IMG/VR virus record: IMGVR_UViG_3300002098_001673 | Span: 1-64,000 of that record | Strand: one strand, 5' to 3' | Origin: a virus | Length of the DNA: 64,000 nt | Shown here: in pieces, positions 2,862 through 55,632 of the stretch | How positions within the stretch are numbered: the first letter of the stretch is position 1 | How the letters are laid out: every line of letters begins with the position of its first letter | The notes under the pieces: generated by a model | Seen by the model: only the letters and a program-made list of their open reading frames with translations | The model's database searches: none | Told to the model about the DNA's origin: nothing | Translations under genes and position numbers: made by a program

Positions 2862-4993
2862 GTTAAACACATAATATCATATATGATAATTAATTCTATA
2901 ATTATTTCTTGATTGTTAAGAATAGGGTTTATTGTACTTGTTGTTATTGTTATTTGATTATTAAAAGCCTCTATGGTAACTGACCCAATTCCAGGAATTC
3001 CAAGTAATATACTTTGAATCTCGTCATACCATAAATTATCACTTGGAGCTGATGTTAATGTAGTTGCAGTGTAAAAAACTTGGCTTATAACAGTACCTAA
3101 CGGTTTTATTGAAACTTTTGCAGTAAATGTTGCCGAAATTAAATCACAATTTGTATTACCAGATGTTAAATCAAAAAATCCTTCATTTAACATTTGAGTT
3201 AATCCATATTTGGTTGGAGACTCTATTTGAAATACTTCACATCCCATAGCGTATGTTTGATAAGATGCATATAATTGAGAACAATTAATTGAAATTGTTC
3301 TATGTAACGAACATGAATTACTATCAATGATTGTTAAACTATATGTTCCGGCAGTAAGATTTGACACTTGTATTTGTTGCGGATTCGATGGTACATTATC
3401 TGACCAATTAAAAGTAAATGGTGGAACTCCAGAAGAAATGAGCGCACTGATTGTACCATCAGAACCATTACCACAAGAAGTACTATATAATGTAAAATCA
3501 ACTAAGGAACTTCCATTAACAAACACTTGAGATTTTTGAGTACATCCAACAGCGTCCGTTACTGTTACAGTATGTTGACCAGATGATACGTTTGTAAATG
3601 TTACCGTATCAAGATTAGTATCAATAATATTGACTACACCATCCAAAGAAAAATTAAAAGGAGCAGTTCCTCCAGTTGTCCTCATAACTTCAATAGCTCC
3701 ATTATTTTGAGCACAAGTTGTTGGCGTAGTTAATGTTGAAATTGTGAATTTATTTTCGGTAAATAAAGTAGTTTCTTGTATAAATGCACATCCATTTGCA
3801 TCTTGAACTGAAATAGTATAAGTTCCAGATTCTAAATTTGAAAATACTTGTGTTGATTGAAAACTACTAATAACTAACGTATTTCCACCAGGCTCAATTA
3901 ATGTATATGTGTATGGAGTTGTTCCGCCAATGACAGATGCAGTAATAGAACCATCAACACTTGAACATGTGGAATTTTGAGTTGTAATATTAATTGAACT
4001 GATTCCCTGAGGTGTATTTAATGTTGTTCCTACTATAATACTACAAAGACCTGAATCAGTCACTAAAAAATTATATTGTCCGGAAGACAATCCACTTAAA
4101 CTAAATGTTTTACTATATGAAATTTCAAAAAAACCAGTAGACGCAGAATAATAATATGGAGCGGTTCCTCCTGTTATTGTTAAATTAATAACTCCATCAC
4201 TTGCAAAACAACTAGGTGGCGTTACAGTAAAAAGGCCAAAACCTATTGCAGGAACATTTTCAACAAATGCACTTTCAGTTTTAGAACACCCTAAACTATC
4301 GATAACTTGCACCGAATAATTTCCAGACGTTAATCCAGTTATTGTATTTCCTGTTTGACCATTACTCCAATAATACGAATATGGCGCAACACCTGTCTGA
4401 CCTGTCACATATATTTTACCTATTGGTGTTCCTCCACAACTTGAATTAGGTACAACATATAAACCAAAATCAAATGGTTGTGATTCCTCAATAATAAATG
4501 TTTGACTTTGTCCTGAACAACCTCCTAAATCTTGTGCAATTAAATAATATGTTGATGCACTTAAAGTTCCAAATATGATTGTTGAAGTATTTGTAATTCC
4601 TGAATTAATGAATGTATTATTTATATCAAATAAATAAAAATTAGTTGAGGAGTAATTTGATGTAGAAGTTCCTGTAACCGAGCCATTATTTATATTACAA
4701 GAAGTACTCATAGTATCAACTATACTACAACAAACTCCATTAGATACTGGTATATTTACATAAAATTCTTGGTTAGTAGGTAAAGTACTATCATTTAAAC
4801 GAAGTGCGTATGTTCCGCCACTTAATCCTGTCCTGATAGAAGGTAATACGGTAACAGTATCTACTCCCAAATTAGGACTTTGCCAATCTACTGTATATGG
4901 TGGAGTTCCTCCATATGGTAATATTGATATTATTCCCACTAAAGAACTTGTACAATCCCCTGTTGTTGATATTTGATAATTAAATGCTGCCAT
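2858..4993 (-). CDS. SprB-repeat-containing protein (adhesin-like beta-sandwich repeats)
   Basis: Repeated C-x3-DG-x-I-x5-GGT-x-P-Y/F-x-Y/F-x-W and LsaGtYsvtVtDanGC motifs, e.g. SCGNGSDGTISALISSGVPPFTFNWS...LTAGTYSLTIIDSNSC, typical of the Bacteroidota SprB repeat. Confidence 0.8.
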   Translation of the reverse strand: MAAFNYQISTTGDCTSSLVGIISILPYGGTPPYTVDWQSPNLGVDTVTVLPSIRTGLSGGTYALRLNDSTLPTNQEFYVNIPVSNGVCCSIVDTMSTSCNINNGSVTGTSTSNYSSTNFYLFDINNTFINSGITNTSTIIFGTLSASTYYLIAQDLGGCSGQSQTFIIEESQPFDFGLYVVPNSSCGGTPIGKIYVTGQTGVAPYSYYWSNGQTGNTITGLTSGNYSVQVIDSLGCSKTESAFVENVPAIGFGLFTVTPPSCFASDGVINLTITGGTAPYYYSASTGFFEISYSKTFSLSGLSSGQYNFLVTDSGLCSIIVGTTLNTPQGISSINITTQNSTCSSVDGSITASVIGGTTPYTYTLIEPGGNTLVISSFQSTQVFSNLESGTYTISVQDANGCAFIQETTLFTENKFTISTLTTPTTCAQNNGAIEVMRTTGGTAPFNFSLDGVVNIIDTNLDTVTFTNVSSGQHTVTVTDAVGCTQKSQVFVNGSSLVDFTLYSTSCGNGSDGTISALISSGVPPFTFNWSDNVPSNPQQIQVSNLTAGTYSLTIIDSNSCSLHRTISINCSQLYASYQTYAMGCEVFQIESPTKYGLTQMLNEGFFDLTSGNTNCDLISATFTAKVSIKPLGTVISQVFYTATTLTSAPSDNLWYDEIQSILLGIPGIGSVTIEAFNNQITITTSTINPILNNQEIIIELIIIYDIMCLT

Positions 4994-51675: not shown

Positions 51676-54600
51676 ATGAACAAAGAAATAAGTTTAGAAT
51701 CGAAAGCTATGTCCATCCTTGAGACATATGATGGAGGTAATAATTATATATTTGAATTAAAAAGAAAATCTCAAATTAATAAAAAGTTTTATCCGACAAG
51801 AAGTCAATCAGAATATATTATTAATTTTCATGATAAACCACCGAAAATTGCAAAGAAGTGGGTAATATTAGATTCGTATTTTGCACAAAAATTAGCTGAC
51901 GATAAATTATATACAGAAATTCCACAAAAAATTTGGGTTGAAAAACTTTTAGCAGATAAAGAAAAATCTTATCATATTTGGGGAAAAGTATTTGAAACAG
52001 AACAACTTCATGATTTTTGGTTACCAAAGGCATCAATCATTAAAGATAACAGAGTAAAAGATGTTGTTATTAATTATGACAAATATTCAAATCGTCCACC
52101 ACTACCGCATCAAAAAGAAGCGATTCAAAAGCTGGTTGAAAATAAAAAATTTATACTTGCTGACGATATGGGTTTGGGTAAAGGGATTACCAATAACACA
52201 CTGATTTACAATGAATTGGGAGTAAAAAAAATGGGTGAAATTGTGGTTGGAGATAGGGTTATTGGTTCCGATGGTAAAGCATATAATGTGAATGGTGTGT
52301 ATCCTCAAGGAAAAAAAGAAACGTACAAAATCACGTTTAATGATGGATATTCCATAATAACGGATGACGTACATTTATGGTCGGTATCTTCACCCAATTA
52401 TGGTGAAAATAGAAAAAACGAAAGACGAAAAAAATCTTTAACTCTATCTACTAAACAAATGTACGAAGGAGGTAAGATTATAATAAAAGGTGATGGTTAT
52501 AATTCGGAAAAAAAATATGAAGTTGAAACTTTTTATAAATCACCAAACGGAAATAATAAATGGCAAATACCTATTGTTCAACCTATCCATTTCAAAAATA
52601 AATATGATTTACCAATTGACCCCTATTTGTTGGGACTATCGTTGGGTGACGGTTATTTTGATAAGTACAAGAATTGTCGCTTTACCGTTCACAAAAATGA
52701 TTATGATGAATTATTTCAAAATTTTGATTTGAAAAAAATCAAAACAAGAGTCAATCAAAAAGGTGGATATATAAATTTTCAAAATAAATTAAATGACTTA
52801 AAATTAAACAATACTAAAGCCCATAATAAATTTATACCTGATATATACAAATACACATCAATTGAAAATCGTCTTGCGATTTTACAAGGTTTAATGGACA
52901 CTGATGGTCACTGTATGATATCAAAAAACGGTAGTTTTAACGGAACCGAATTTTCAACAATTTCAGAAAAACTTTGTGATGATGTTTGTGAAATTGTACA
53001 AACATTGGGTGGAATAGCACGTAAAAAATCAAGACGTAGTTTCTACAAAAAAGATGGTAAACGAATTGAATGTAACATATCTTATCGAGTTAACATTAAA
53101 TTACCAAAGGGTATGAACCCATTTAAGTTAAAAAGAAAAGCAGATAGATATGTCGAACCAAAAAAATATCCAATCGGAAGATATATAACAAATATTGAAA
53201 AATATGGGGAAGATGAATGTACTTGTATATCTGTGGATTCTCCAGATAAATTATATGTAGCCCAACATTGTATAGTAACACATAATACTACGTCAACCAT
53301 AATTGCCACTTTAGAAACAGGAGCAAAAAAAGTTCTGATTATATGTCCTGCAACACTTAAGATAAATTGGAAAAGAGAAATTGAAAACTATACAGACAGA
53401 AGTATATTCATTGCGGAAGGTAAAAACTTTTCAACCGTTCACGATTTTGTTATAATAAATTATGATATCATAAAAAATTTTCACGAAACCAAAAAGAATG
53501 GTAAATCTTTAATTAACGATACAAATTTTGATTTAGTAATTTTAGATGAATGTTTTACATACGACACTAAAATTATGACCGAATCTGGTGAAAAAAATAT
53601 TGGAGATATTGTAGAGAATGGATTAGATATTAAAATTTTAACATATAACCATAGAAATAAAATTTTGGAATATAAAAAAATAAATAGATGGATTAGAAAA
53701 AATAAAGACACTATTTACAAAATAAAACTCAACAACGGACTATTTTTAGAGTGTACTGATAATCATAAATTCTATGTAAATAATAAAGGATATGTTAGGG
53801 CAAACGAACTCACAACAACCGATGACTTGTATATGTTGTCAGAAATTACTAACGAAGAAACAGATTTGGAAAAAAACAAAATGTTGCTCAAAAAGTTGTG
53901 CATCTATAATAAGGAACAAAACTTCACCACAAAAAACAAAAGAATTGAAGTTTCACAAAAATTGTCCGGAATGTGGAATCCTAATGAGTTTTACAACGGA
54001 CATAAAAATGAAAAAGAAAACATATTGCTCTGTAAAATGTTCAAACAAAGTAAAATCAAAAAATCCAGAGGTAAGAGAAAAACGGAGAAAAACAATAGAA
54101 AAAAATGGGGGGTGGTCAAAAATAATGAAAAATACTCATATGAAAAATCCTCATACGGCAAAATTTTCTTCTCAAAGGATGAAAAAAAACAACCCAATGA
54201 AAAATTTGGAGAGTTTAGAAAAAATGAGAGAAAAATTAAAAGGAAGAACCTTCTTATCAAGAGGAGGGAATGGGAAAATAACACCACAACAAGAAATATT
54301 ATTTCAAATGTTAGGGGAAGGATGGATAATGGAATTACCAATTCTAACAGAAAATGCAAAAATGTTATTCAAAAGTTTGCCACCATCATACAAAGTAGAT
54401 ATTGGAAACCCAAAACTAAAAATATCCATAGAAATAGATGGGAGAACGCACAAACAAAAAAAGTGGAAATTTTTGGACAAGAGAAAAACCAAAATATTAA
54501 ATATGTTAGGGTGGAAAGTATTGAGATTTTGGAACGAGGAAGTTATGACAAATCCACAAAAATGCATTCAACAAATACAAGAGTGTATGATTTAGAAATT

Positions 54601-55632
54601 GAGGATAATCATAACTATTTTGCAAATAATATTTTAGTTAGTAATTGTCACTATATCAAAAATGTTACAGCGCAAAGAACAAAACTAATTAATGATTTTG
54701 TAAAAAATATTGACAGGTTATGGTTATTGTCTGGTACACCAATGACATCAAGACCAATTGATTATTTTAATTTATTAAGTTTAGTTGATTCTCCTACAGC
54801 AAAAAATTGGATGGCTTATGCAATTAGATATTGCCAAGGATATCAATTTAATGTTGGAGGTAGAAAAGTTTGGAATGTTGTCGGAGCCTCAAATTTAGAA
54901 GAATTGAGGGATAGAACCTCCCCAACAATCTTAAGAAGATTAAAAGAAGATGTTCTTGATTTGCCTGAAAAAATAATAACACCAATCTACCTTAGATTAA
55001 AATCTAAAGAATATGAAGAAGTTATGGGTGAATATTATAATTGGTATGATAAAAATCCTGAAGAGTCAAAATCATTAACAGTTCAGTTTACCAAATTAAC
55101 AAAAATACGACAAATCATTGCCAATGAAAAAATAGAACATACAATTGAGCTTGCTGAAAATATTATTGAACAAGGAAAAAAAGTAATCATATTTTGTAAC
55201 TTTACAGAATCTTTAGAAAAGATAACACAACACTTTGGTAAGAGTGCTGTTAAGTTAAATGGAACAATGTCAAAGGTAGAGAAACAAAACAGCGTTGACC
55301 AATTTCAAGAAAATGAAAAAATAAAAGTATTTGTTGGTAACATTAAAGCGGCAGGTGTTGGTATTACATTAACTGCTGCTGAAGCTGTTATAATGAATGA
55401 TTTATCTTTTTTACCTTCAGACCATTCACAAGCAGAAGACCGTAGTTATAGGTATGGTCAAAAAAATAATGTTTTAGTATATTATCCAATATTTGAAAAT
55501 ACAATTGAAGGGATAATATATGATATATTGAATAATAAAAAACAAGTGATTGCAACAGTAATGGGGGATAATCAAAATTCTGCAAATGCTGCTGAAGAAA
55601 TACTACAAAGAATTAATGAATTAAGGCAATAA
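51676..55632 (+). CDS. SNF2-family (HARP/SMARCAL1-like) helicase precursor with two inteins; about 585 aa after splicing
   Basis: PLPHQKEA, LADDMGLGK|T, LIICPATLKINW, ILDE|CH, LLSGTP, LRRLKEDVLDLPEK, AAGVGITLT, QAEDRSYRYGQ. Confidence 0.93.
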   Translation: MNKEISLESKAMSILETYDGGNNYIFELKRKSQINKKFYPTRSQSEYIINFHDKPPKIAKKWVILDSYFAQKLADDKLYTEIPQKIWVEKLLADKEKSYHIWGKVFETEQLHDFWLPKASIIKDNRVKDVVINYDKYSNRPPLPHQKEAIQKLVENKKFILADDMGLGKGITNNTLIYNELGVKKMGEIVVGDRVIGSDGKAYNVNGVYPQGKKETYKITFNDGYSIITDDVHLWSVSSPNYGENRKNERRKKSLTLSTKQMYEGGKIIIKGDGYNSEKKYEVETFYKSPNGNNKWQIPIVQPIHFKNKYDLPIDPYLLGLSLGDGYFDKYKNCRFTVHKNDYDELFQNFDLKKIKTRVNQKGGYINFQNKLNDLKLNNTKAHNKFIPDIYKYTSIENRLAILQGLMDTDGHCMISKNGSFNGTEFSTISEKLCDDVCEIVQTLGGIARKKSRRSFYKKDGKRIECNISYRVNIKLPKGMNPFKLKRKADRYVEPKKYPIGRYITNIEKYGEDECTCISVDSPDKLYVAQHCIVTHNTTSTIIATLETGAKKVLIICPATLKINWKREIENYTDRSIFIAEGKNFSTVHDFVIINYDIIKNFHETKKNGKSLINDTNFDLVILDECFTYDTKIMTESGEKNIGDIVENGLDIKILTYNHRNKILEYKKINRWIRKNKDTIYKIKLNNGLFLECTDNHKFYVNNKGYVRANELTTTDDLYMLSEITNEETDLEKNKMLLKKLCIYNKEQNFTTKNKRIEVSQKLSGMWNPNEFYNGHKNEKENILLCKMFKQSKIKKSRGKRKTEKNNRKKWGVVKNNEKYSYEKSSYGKIFFSKDEKKQPNEKFGEFRKNERKIKRKNLLIKRREWENNTTTRNIISNVRGRMDNGITNSNRKCKNVIQKFATIIQSRYWKPKTKNIHRNRWENAQTKKVEIFGQEKNQNIKYVRVESIEILERGSYDKSTKMHSTNTRVYDLEIEDNHNYFANNILVSNCHYIKNVTAQRTKLINDFVKNIDRLWLLSGTPMTSRPIDYFNLLSLVDSPTAKNWMAYAIRYCQGYQFNVGGRKVWNVVGASNLEELRDRTSPTILRRLKEDVLDLPEKIITPIYLRLKSKEYEEVMGEYYNWYDKNPEESKSLTVQFTKLTKIRQIIANEKIEHTIELAENIIEQGKKVIIFCNFTESLEKITQHFGKSAVKLNGTMSKVEKQNSVDQFQENEKIKVFVGNIKAAGVGITLTAAEAVIMNDLSFLPSDHSQAEDRSYRYGQKNNVLVYYPIFENTIEGIIYDILNNKKQVIATVMGDNQNSANAAEEILQRINELRQ
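52183..53286 (+). mobile_element. Intein 1 (368 aa), class 3-type, LAGLIDADG endonuclease, inserted in Walker A (GK|T)
   Basis: Starts G-ITNNTLIY; block B TDDVHLW; PYLLGLSLGDG and LQGLMDTDG; block F CTCISV; ends IVTHN|T. Confidence 0.9.
53551..54645 (+). mobile_element. Intein 2 (365 aa), class 1, inserted in Walker B (DE|CH); no in-frame endonuclease
   Basis: Starts CFTYDTKI; block B ECTDNHKF; block F VYDLEIEDNHNYFAN; ends LVSN|C. Confidence 0.9.
53792..54595 (+). CDS. Zinc-finger + DUF559/Vsr-like endonuclease overprinted in the +1 frame inside intein 2
   Basis: CICC..CCSKSC and CPEC..YCSVKC fingers, basic helical repeats (THMKNP, NNPMKN), and TPQQEILF...YKVDI...ISIEIDGRTH...DKRKTKILNMLGWKVLRFWNEEV. 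Start 53792 or 53822. Confidence 0.82.
   Translation: MLGQTNSQQPMTCICCQKLLTKKQIWKKTKCCSKSCASIIRNKTSPQKTKELKFHKNCPECGILMSFTTDIKMKKKTYCSVKCSNKVKSKNPEVREKRRKTIEKNGGWSKIMKNTHMKNPHTAKFSSQRMKKNNPMKNLESLEKMREKLKGRTFLSRGGNGKITPQQEILFQMLGEGWIMELPILTENAKMLFKSLPPSYKVDIGNPKLKISIEIDGRTHKQKKWKFLDKRKTKILNMLGWKVLRFWNEEVMTNPQKCIQQIQECMI

Follow-up and report, generated by a model that had tools for sequence, protein, structure and literature searches.

Where is the homing endonuclease of an intein whose own reading frame encodes none? The question is raised by the IMG/VR virus record IMGVR_UViG_3300002098_001673, of which we analyzed positions 1 to 64,000 (the whole stretch of 64,000 nt, hereafter "the window"). 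It harbors a gene for a SNF2-type helicase precursor that is interrupted by two inteins, the second of which (intein 2) sits in the Walker B motif at DE/CH (the slash marks a junction here and below). An earlier note had drawn attention to a nuclease hidden in the +1 reading frame of intein 2 and had supposed that it is made as a separate product, with the helicase frame (frame 0) kept open as a stop-free spacer. Building on what we observed of the element's anatomy, of selection frame by frame, of how widely the layout is conserved and of its patchy occurrence, we favor, at a probability of roughly 85%, the view that intein 2 is a mobile Walker B intein whose homing endonuclease is a separate gene overprinted in the +1 frame.

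Intein 2 and the nuclease within it

In frame 0, Cys1 of intein 2 directly follows ...ILDE, block B reads TDNH, and the C-terminal end is ...VYDLEIEDNHNYFANNILVSN/CH, with blocks F and G present and the terminal Asn followed by Cys. Residues C1, T69, H72 and N365 were invariant in a comparison with 24 relatives; the residue ahead of the terminal Asn is Ser in the window clade, as against His in most relatives. Pfam recognized Intein_splicing only (52–56 bits versus a cut-off of 35.8), the match being split around a long unmatched middle, and no endonuclease domain was found by Pfam in frame 0. In the model of the frame-0 intein, built with an alignment of 24 relatives, two confident beta-rich lobes of presumed Hint type flank a low-confidence middle of ~215 residues that is predicted to be disordered (Table 1); the C-terminal splicing lobe was kept in all relatives compared. 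The helicase reading frame runs uninterrupted across the intein as part of a single 1318-codon open reading frame (ORF) and is not fractured into two. Excising both inteins in silico left a product of 586 aa in which GLGKT (restored by removal of intein 1) and DE[C]H align in register with intein-free relatives. The spliced DECH is register-matched to the DEAH of 80 such relatives; intein-free relatives read ...gatgaa/gcacac... (DE/AH) at the insertion point. Since the splicing blocks are intact and the insertion lies inside an essential ATPase motif, we infer that intein 2 splices.

The same nucleotides encode a second protein in the +1 frame. Its ATG lies 26 nt downstream of block B and its TAG within the VYDL/E codons of block F, such that the ORF spans intein residues 81–348. 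It matched the Pfam families DUF559 (E 6.4e-15, 55.4 bits, cut-off 20.6) and REase_MTES_1575 (39.3 bits, cut-off 38.2). Two N-terminal modules contain the Cys residues C13, C16, C32, C36, C58, C61, C79 and C83, all invariant or almost so, and gave weak profile matches to zinc ribbons of the MYM/FCS/YacG type. In the predicted structure (model md2839e795636, mean pLDDT 85.5, alignment of 20 homologs), two small zinc-finger modules are followed by several helices and, at the C-terminus, by an alpha/beta domain. Foldseek returned no match in the Protein Data Bank (PDB) at E <= 0.001 for the whole 267-aa model. The nuclease domain matched 3hrl (TM 0.79) and 3r3p, the catalytic domain of I-Bth0305I (TM 0.66), each at a probability of 1.0, and further Vsr (1vsr, 1cw0) and TnsA. 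As E values of these domain matches were in the range of 0.003–0.1 (probabilities 0.9–1.0), we based the assignment as DUF559/Vsr-like on their combination with sequence profiles: the family profile searched against the PDB found 3hrl at E 5.8e-13 and 3r3p at E 0.0075. Residues E181, D203, E214, D216, H220, D229 and K232 are invariant in 20 family members and fit the pattern of 3hrl; the alignment to 3r3p, marginal as its E value is, leaves D216 and H220 unmatched. The ORF in the window is full length and retains every family-invariant residue. Judged by this conservation, the product would be an active nuclease, and the DE/AH region of intein-free alleles is its likely target. The earlier note was thus right as to the splicing blocks, the coordinates, the motifs and the frame relation, the lack of an endonuclease in the frame-0 middle, and the complete +1 protein with two Cys fingers and a nuclease domain that starts just after block B and stops inside block F.

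Why both frames are open

Two mundane explanations of such an overlap had to be weighed, chance and error. The latter would hold that paired compensating indel errors moved an in-frame endonuclease domain out of frame, a suspicion nourished by the A-rich nature of the region and its homopolymer runs. Logan contigs from four freshwater metagenome runs were, however, identical over the stretch, with zero differences or indels at depths of 6.5–104x; three of these runs may be the source of the window sequence, and one represents a separate sample and study. The same frame relation is moreover common to ~130 independent loci and to four GenBank genomes of cultured phages (see below), and the codon usage described in the next paragraph is specific to this frame relation. 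We also searched for a longer protein with the nuclease in frame and found none, which counts for little by itself. Taken together, the prospect of a sequence artefact is negligible. Apart from this, two short, low-depth Logan records (2 and 5) share block G of the intein (54604–54647) and then continue with a different C-extein (Cys-His-Lys-Leu-Lys...); as they stem from the same metagenomes, a related intein sits in another gene of the same community.

Chance is no better an explanation. Synonymous-codon shuffles of the nuclease ORF predicted 12 stops in the intein frame and extein codon usage predicted 22, compared with none observed; none of 5000 shuffles was stop-free, and the third sense frame contains 35 stops. 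The shuffle test had the same outcome for the Vibrio phages CP-T1 and 1.088.O. The earlier note's remark that both frames stay open in AT-rich DNA where off-frame stops are frequent is borne out by these figures. The +1 nesting is thus neither an assembly error nor a chance event. The means by which frame 0 is kept open can be read from the codons. A stop in frame 0 can arise only where a nuclease codon ending in T precedes a codon starting with AA, AG or GA, and since a change from NNT to NNC never alters the amino acid, all such stops are avoidable with the nuclease protein unchanged. Indeed, 0 of 99 nuclease codons before AA, AG or GA end in T, versus 47 of 167 elsewhere. The two-fold NNY codons at stop-prone positions all end in C (9/9), whereas T-ending ones prevail in the rest of the ORF (34/42) and in the helicase exteins (122/146). 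Of the alternative sense frames, only this one lets stops be eliminated while the nuclease sequence is left untouched.

Selection in the two frames was assessed by the Nei–Gojobori method on a gap-free alignment of six unique close sequences (the window and five IMG/VR contigs; 72–84% identity in the nuclease). In the core of the overlap, dN/dS was 0.14 for the nuclease frame, with the third position the most variable (0.36), and 1.30 for the intein frame, where codon position 1 changes most. For comparison, values of 0.08–0.09 were obtained for the exteins and 0.16 for the intein N-lobe. The nuclease frame is under purifying selection, and the overlapped intein frame is relaxed at the protein level. 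Together with the stop avoidance and the disordered model, the per-frame ratios identify the frame-0 middle as a stop-free spacer without constraint at the protein level, as the earlier note had supposed. The ends of the overlap obey a different regime. In the last 36 overlapping codons, dN/dS was 0.28 (nuclease frame) and 0.77 (intein frame), with p-distances of 0.06–0.12 at each codon position, a pattern that would be expected of two simultaneous constraints. Here, the nuclease core GWKVLRFWN is written over the intein strand VRVESIEIL...VYDL, a pairing that recurs in the Vibrio phages.

Probable initiation of nuclease synthesis

The start codon at 53792 is conserved in 8/8 close relatives; ATG 53822, considered as an alternative conserved start, was ruled out, as it is ACG in two close relatives. 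In the window clade as well as in CP-T1 and 1.088.O, a stop in the nuclease frame is found 2–5 codons upstream of the start. Family-wide, an ATG follows such a stop by 0–5 codons in nearly all relatives and regularly just precedes the first CxxC. The Vibrio phages carry GAGG 6–9 nt before the start, inside the intein Asp-Glu-Val codons, and Shine-Dalgarno-like motifs at normal spacing are present in many loci of mid G+C content. In the window phage, only 2 of 35 long ORFs have GGAG, GAGG or AGGA upstream (background 6%), suggesting that its host probably does not rely on Shine-Dalgarno pairing; leaders in the window are A-rich at positions −14 to −5, and the sequence before 53792 fits this picture. 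A scan of 53300–54800 for sigma-70-type promoters, whose consensus may not be that of the host, gave 9 matches versus 8.4 expected; one weak match (CTGATA-17-AATAAT, 53756–53784) ends 8 nt before the ATG. Being at chance level, the scan lends no support to a promoter within the element.

The earlier note had left the choice between internal initiation and a ribosomal frameshift. In the latter case, a programmed +1 (or −2) shift would yield a fusion of N-extein, intein N-lobe and nuclease in one chain, an idea that draws on the overlap of the two frames on the same strand and on the observation that the ATG of the window clade is not preceded by a Shine-Dalgarno motif at suitable spacing. Yet the upstream stop in the nuclease frame, which also outside the groups just named mostly lies within a few codons of the start, leaves few codons for a shift, and these share no slippery motif; many relatives, as mentioned, have Shine-Dalgarno-like motifs at normal spacing. 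The frameshift also has on its side the protein P0015 (372 aa), which begins in frame 0 and ends in the nuclease frame, the outcome expected of a single indel; this is one sequence from one metagenome contig of 2047 nt, with the helicase truncated as by an indel. We therefore regard a frameshifted fusion as improbable. Independent internal initiation at the conserved ATG after a stop is the best reading of these sequences and fits better than frameshifting, so that of the earlier note's proposal the separate product stands as likely and the frameshift route recedes.

A family with a common layout

A blastn search of the region against the phage collection gave no match, for which reason close relatives were sought through the protein. 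Ten close IMG/VR loci were found to show the +1 nesting. tblastn of the nuclease against GenBank phages hit 40 records (hosts Vibrio, Pseudomonas and Corynebacterium), and the nuclease is annotated in none of them, a helicase-type coding sequence (CDS) being the only feature under the match; the earlier note had rightly foreseen that standard annotation misses the nuclease. The match is +1 to the CDS in the cultured phages CP-T1 (gp10), 1.088.O (gene 73), phi673 (gp43) and MR14 (gp44), and both frames are open in the two cultured-phage records that were checked in full. A profile scan of IMG/VR yielded 267 loci. We read the layout for the best ~80 of these 267 viral matches and for the best 80 of 117 matches in representative bacterial and archaeal genomes. 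In 82 of 83 viral loci, the nuclease is nested in a longer ORF (655–2591 codons) in exactly the same frame relation, down to 30% identity. Among the genomic loci, 44 of 49 family members are nested alike, in bacteria that include Chloroflexota, Cyanobacteriota, Proteobacteria, Bacteroidota, Firmicutes and Patescibacteria. By comparison, 2 of 31 ordinary DUF559 genes from the same genome scan were nested in an intein-bearing ORF, both as short remnants. In total, ~130 independent loci from uncultured and cultured phages and bacterial genomes exhibit the +1 nesting.

A hidden Markov model of the intein N-lobe placed this lobe just upstream of the nuclease in 85/85 host ORFs, at the Walker B junction: DE/CH in 62, DE/CQ in 8, DE/SH in 1 and just after DExH in ~10. 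Downstream of the nuclease stop, 81 of the 85 have a ...[HS]N/C junction. The host genes code for SNF2 and ResIII/DEAD helicases, giant methylase-helicase proteins and clamp-loader ATPases.

Some members depart from the common layout. Loci L011 and L012 (around 3501–3752) have lost most of the nuclease by an in-frame deletion of 184 codons, with the intein frame still open, and represent mini-intein derivatives. In L089 (2726–4663), a stop ends the host frame within the linker and a separate ATG opens the C-intein, the nuclease ORF overlapping both halves; this is a natural fractured-gene (split-intein) form of the element. Remnant nuclease fragments lie within bacterial inteins at L223 and L228. 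Free-standing family members were also encountered, at L186:3333-4223 (Massilia) and L194:3471-4418 (Pontibacter), one near a recombinase-like and the other near a ParA-like gene, identities that were judged from translations by eye.

Intein 2 is absent from the best 80 of 456 IMG/VR helicase relatives (84–98% identity over the C-extein; 0/80), all of which read DE/AH. Relative to the four nearest empty alleles, nucleotide identity is 81–98% (mostly 88–96%) along the gene, drops from about 91–96% to 66–83% in the segment that begins shortly ahead of the intein 1 site and reaches to the intein 2 site, and is 96% directly after. The divergent tract corresponds to window positions 52157–53550, that is, extein nt 481–780 of the spliced gene, and would be expected if flanking extein was co-converted during homing. 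In addition, dS is 0.62 in the intein (N-lobe) versus above 2 in the exteins. The patchy distribution among close alleles indicates that intein 2 has, in all likelihood, spread horizontally.

These data also bear on whether the +1 ORF of the window could be an inherited relic, unexpressed or inactive, in an element on its way to becoming a mini-intein. Homing elements do decay after fixation, and L011/L012 as well as the remnants at L223 and L228 illustrate such an outcome. For the window, though, the ORF is full length with every family-invariant residue kept, the dN/dS of the clade is that of a constrained protein (0.14), and the rarity of the intein among very close intein-free alleles suggests a recent gain rather than an old fixation. 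A relic thus has, in our judgement, as slim a chance as the frameshifted fusion.

The remaining features of the gene are listed in Table 1. Intein 1, in the P-loop of the helicase, is of the LAGLIDADG type and is mentioned for context only; it was found neither in the best 80 of the 456 helicase relatives nor in the 8 carriers of intein 2. A comparable pair was noticed in another SNF2 host ORF (L019:1229-5335), where a LAGLIDADG-type intein lies upstream of a Walker B-type intein with nested nuclease.

Table 1. Coordinates in the window of the helicase precursor gene, its inteins and the overprinted nuclease gene.
Feature	Position	Strand	Details
Nested homing-endonuclease gene	53792-54595	+	ATG 53792, TAG 54593-54595; 267 aa; +1 relative to the helicase/intein frame; putative
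Two CxxC...CSxxC zinc-finger modules	53828-54040	+	~residues 13-36 and 58-83; conserved Cys
DUF559/Vsr-like nuclease domain	54284-54589	+	~residues 165-266; YKVD, IEIDGxxH, DxRK, GWKVLRFWN; Pfam DUF559, PDB profile, Foldseek
Intein 2, Cys1 to ...VSN	53551-54645	+	365 aa, frame 0; +1 Cys at 54646-54648
Intein N-terminal splicing lobe	53551-53844	+	residues 1-98; AlphaFold model md83b0c563c09, pLDDT 75-91
Frame-0 linker	53845-54489	+	residues 99-313; K/N/E/R-rich; pLDDT 31-44; without Pfam domain
Intein C-terminal splicing lobe	54490-54645	+	residues 314-365; VRVESIEIL..., blocks F/G; pLDDT 65-91 except one loop
5' zone, nuclease ORF over folded intein N-lobe	53792-53844	+	~18 codons
3' zone, both frames encode folded protein	54490-54595	+	~35 codons; all three codon positions conserved
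SNF2-type helicase precursor gene	51676-55632	+	1318 aa, two inteins; Pfam SNF2-rel_dom, Helicase_C
Walker B / motif II Asp-Glu codons GATGAA	53545-53550	+	N-extein side of the intein 2 insertion
Intein 1, LAGLIDADG type, P-loop of helicase	52183-53286	+	Pfam LAGLIDADG_3, Hom_end; context only

Relation to known systems

The earlier note knew of no established class with this architecture, which was an overstatement: the architecture is a documented, if rare, class and not new. An out-of-frame endonuclease in the DnaX intein of Synechocystis was noted by Gorbalenya in 1998, as cited in two later preprints (10.1101/2025.01.02.630785 and 10.64898/2026.09.14.751524), and the case was re-examined in 2026 as an out-of-frame LAGLIDADG enzyme (Phillips, DeSimone and Gogarten; 10.64898/2026.09.14.751524). 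The cyanobacterial DnaX intein resembles the element described here in that the ORF overlaps on the same strand, dN/dS is low for the endonuclease but elevated when the overlapped stretch is read in the intein frame, and full, mini and empty alleles coexist (10.64898/2026.09.14.751524). It differs in having a LAGLIDADG endonuclease in a "+2 ORF" of a bacterial chromosomal gene, whereas the family of the window encodes a DUF559/Vsr-like enzyme with zinc fingers in the +1 frame, mainly in phages. Some members of the latter do, however, reside in phage clamp-loader (DnaX-like) genes at DE/CH.

A survey of actinobacteriophage inteins described antisense LAGLIDADG, antisense VSR-like and frame-3 endonuclease VII-like genes in inteins of DNA polymerase, minor capsid, terminase and thymidylate synthase genes, and its authors infer that a mini-intein was invaded by a free-standing endonuclease gene, with continued horizontal spread (Gosselin, Arsenault and Gogarten; 10.1101/2025.01.02.630785). 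As in those inteins, the splicing domain in the window is intact, and a complete endonuclease that is not part of the intein frame is encoded between the splicing blocks. Unlike them, its VSR-like gene is on the sense strand in +1 and is associated with Walker B sites of SNF2/DEAD helicases, methylase-helicases and clamp loaders, and the family extends well past the actinophages.

The first link between Vsr-like endonucleases and inteins came from free-standing genes located between the halves of split inteins (Dassa et al. 2009, PMC2677866), the 3' end of the nuclease gene overlapping the C-intein coding region by 6–69 bp in 15 loci (PMC2677866). Like our family, those fractured genes involve inteins of phage DNA-metabolism genes in which a Vsr-related nuclease takes the endonuclease position, and L089 has exactly the fractured form. 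In the window, by contrast, a host frame free of stops leaves the intein in one piece, with the nuclease ORF lying entirely inside it. The model of Dassa et al. provides for fracture or in-frame insertion as outcomes and does not include an out-of-frame state with read-through (PMC2677866).

As regards the enzyme itself, I-Bth0305I, the EDxHD-type endonuclease (Taylor et al. 2011, PMC3239194; 3r3p), and DUF559 (3hrl) have in common with the window nuclease a Vsr-like fold of the PD-(D/E)xK type and an N-terminal DNA-binding extension. I-Bth0305I is encoded in a group I intron, however, and its similarity is marginal, the D and H of IExDGxxH being unmatched; the window nuclease, much closer to 3hrl, is therefore at most a possible member of the EDxHD family in the strict sense. 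A hidden HNH endonuclease of the ShiLan type in phage methylase genes (PMC11855218) is alike in being an out-of-frame endonuclease inside an insertion open in the host frame, missed by standard pipelines, and in that the mode of endonuclease translation is unsettled (PMC11855218); it is unlike in lacking a splicing domain and in using an HNH enzyme in the third frame (PMC11855218). In the full-text literature that we searched, which leaves most subscription journals outside, we came across no description of a sense-strand +1 Vsr-like endonuclease in Walker B inteins. New are the combination of nuclease type, frame and target site, a family this large and uniform, the explanation of the frame at the level of codons, and the natural link to fractured genes.

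The overprinted gene as a probable homing device

In the mechanism that we propose, the helicase mRNA would be read in frame 0 through the entire element, and the splicing lobes would fold around the presumably disordered linker and excise the intein to give DE-CH. The nuclease would be translated on its own from the conserved ATG and most likely cut the intein-free DEAH alleles of related phages during co-infection, whereupon repair may copy the intein, the nuclease gene and some flanking extein into the cut allele. Several points weigh against this interpretation. The intein of the window clade has a penultimate Ser in place of His, and its splicing is predicted from conserved blocks. Translation of the +1 ORF is likewise deduced from its sequence context. 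The window clade has a single purine-rich motif there, AAAGGA, and as it ends 1 nt upstream of the ATG, a spacing too short for a Shine-Dalgarno element, the case for initiation draws on the likeness to the phage's other leaders. Homing is read from patterns of distribution and divergence, and the divergent tract lies between the two inteins and so cannot be assigned to intein 2 alone. Finally, Nei–Gojobori counts ignore the overlap of the frames, although the contrast between nuclease and intein frames is large all the same. On the other side, the earlier note had named three things to look out for, a +1 product without nuclease match, homologs with a broken +1 frame beside a conserved frame-0 linker, and compensating indels in the data. 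None of the three occurred; what we found were the DUF559 match, nesting in nearly all viral loci and four identical assemblies.

A further-reaching reading, which we put forward tentatively and would sooner doubt than accept, is that this is an old, monophyletic family of Walker B inteins whose Vsr-like endonuclease is almost always overprinted in +1, as a stable design and not a passing accident. The layout would then persist because no other sense frame can be purged of host-frame stops by synonymous NNT-to-NNC changes. If so, it would be the contiguous intermediate that is absent from the model of Dassa et al., between an invaded mini-intein and fractured genes, and L089 would be a natural example of the transition to the latter. 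The dosage of the nuclease could, in addition, be tied to host-gene expression via the translated helicase message.

For the accounting of mobile inteins, the consequence is that surveys would list such elements among the mini-inteins that lack a nuclease and thus undercount the mobile ones. The family also constitutes a large natural set of long same-strand overlaps (~800 nt), useful for models of the evolution and design of overlapping genes, and follows a simple rule: along most of the overlap, selection acts on the protein in one frame and only on freedom from stops in the other, while at the two ends both frames encode folded protein. As contiguous, nuclease-deleted, fractured and free-standing forms are all at hand, the entry of endonucleases into inteins and the origin of split inteins become testable by comparison, and the nucleases themselves are candidates for site-specific enzymes directed at the part of helicase genes that encodes the DExH motif.

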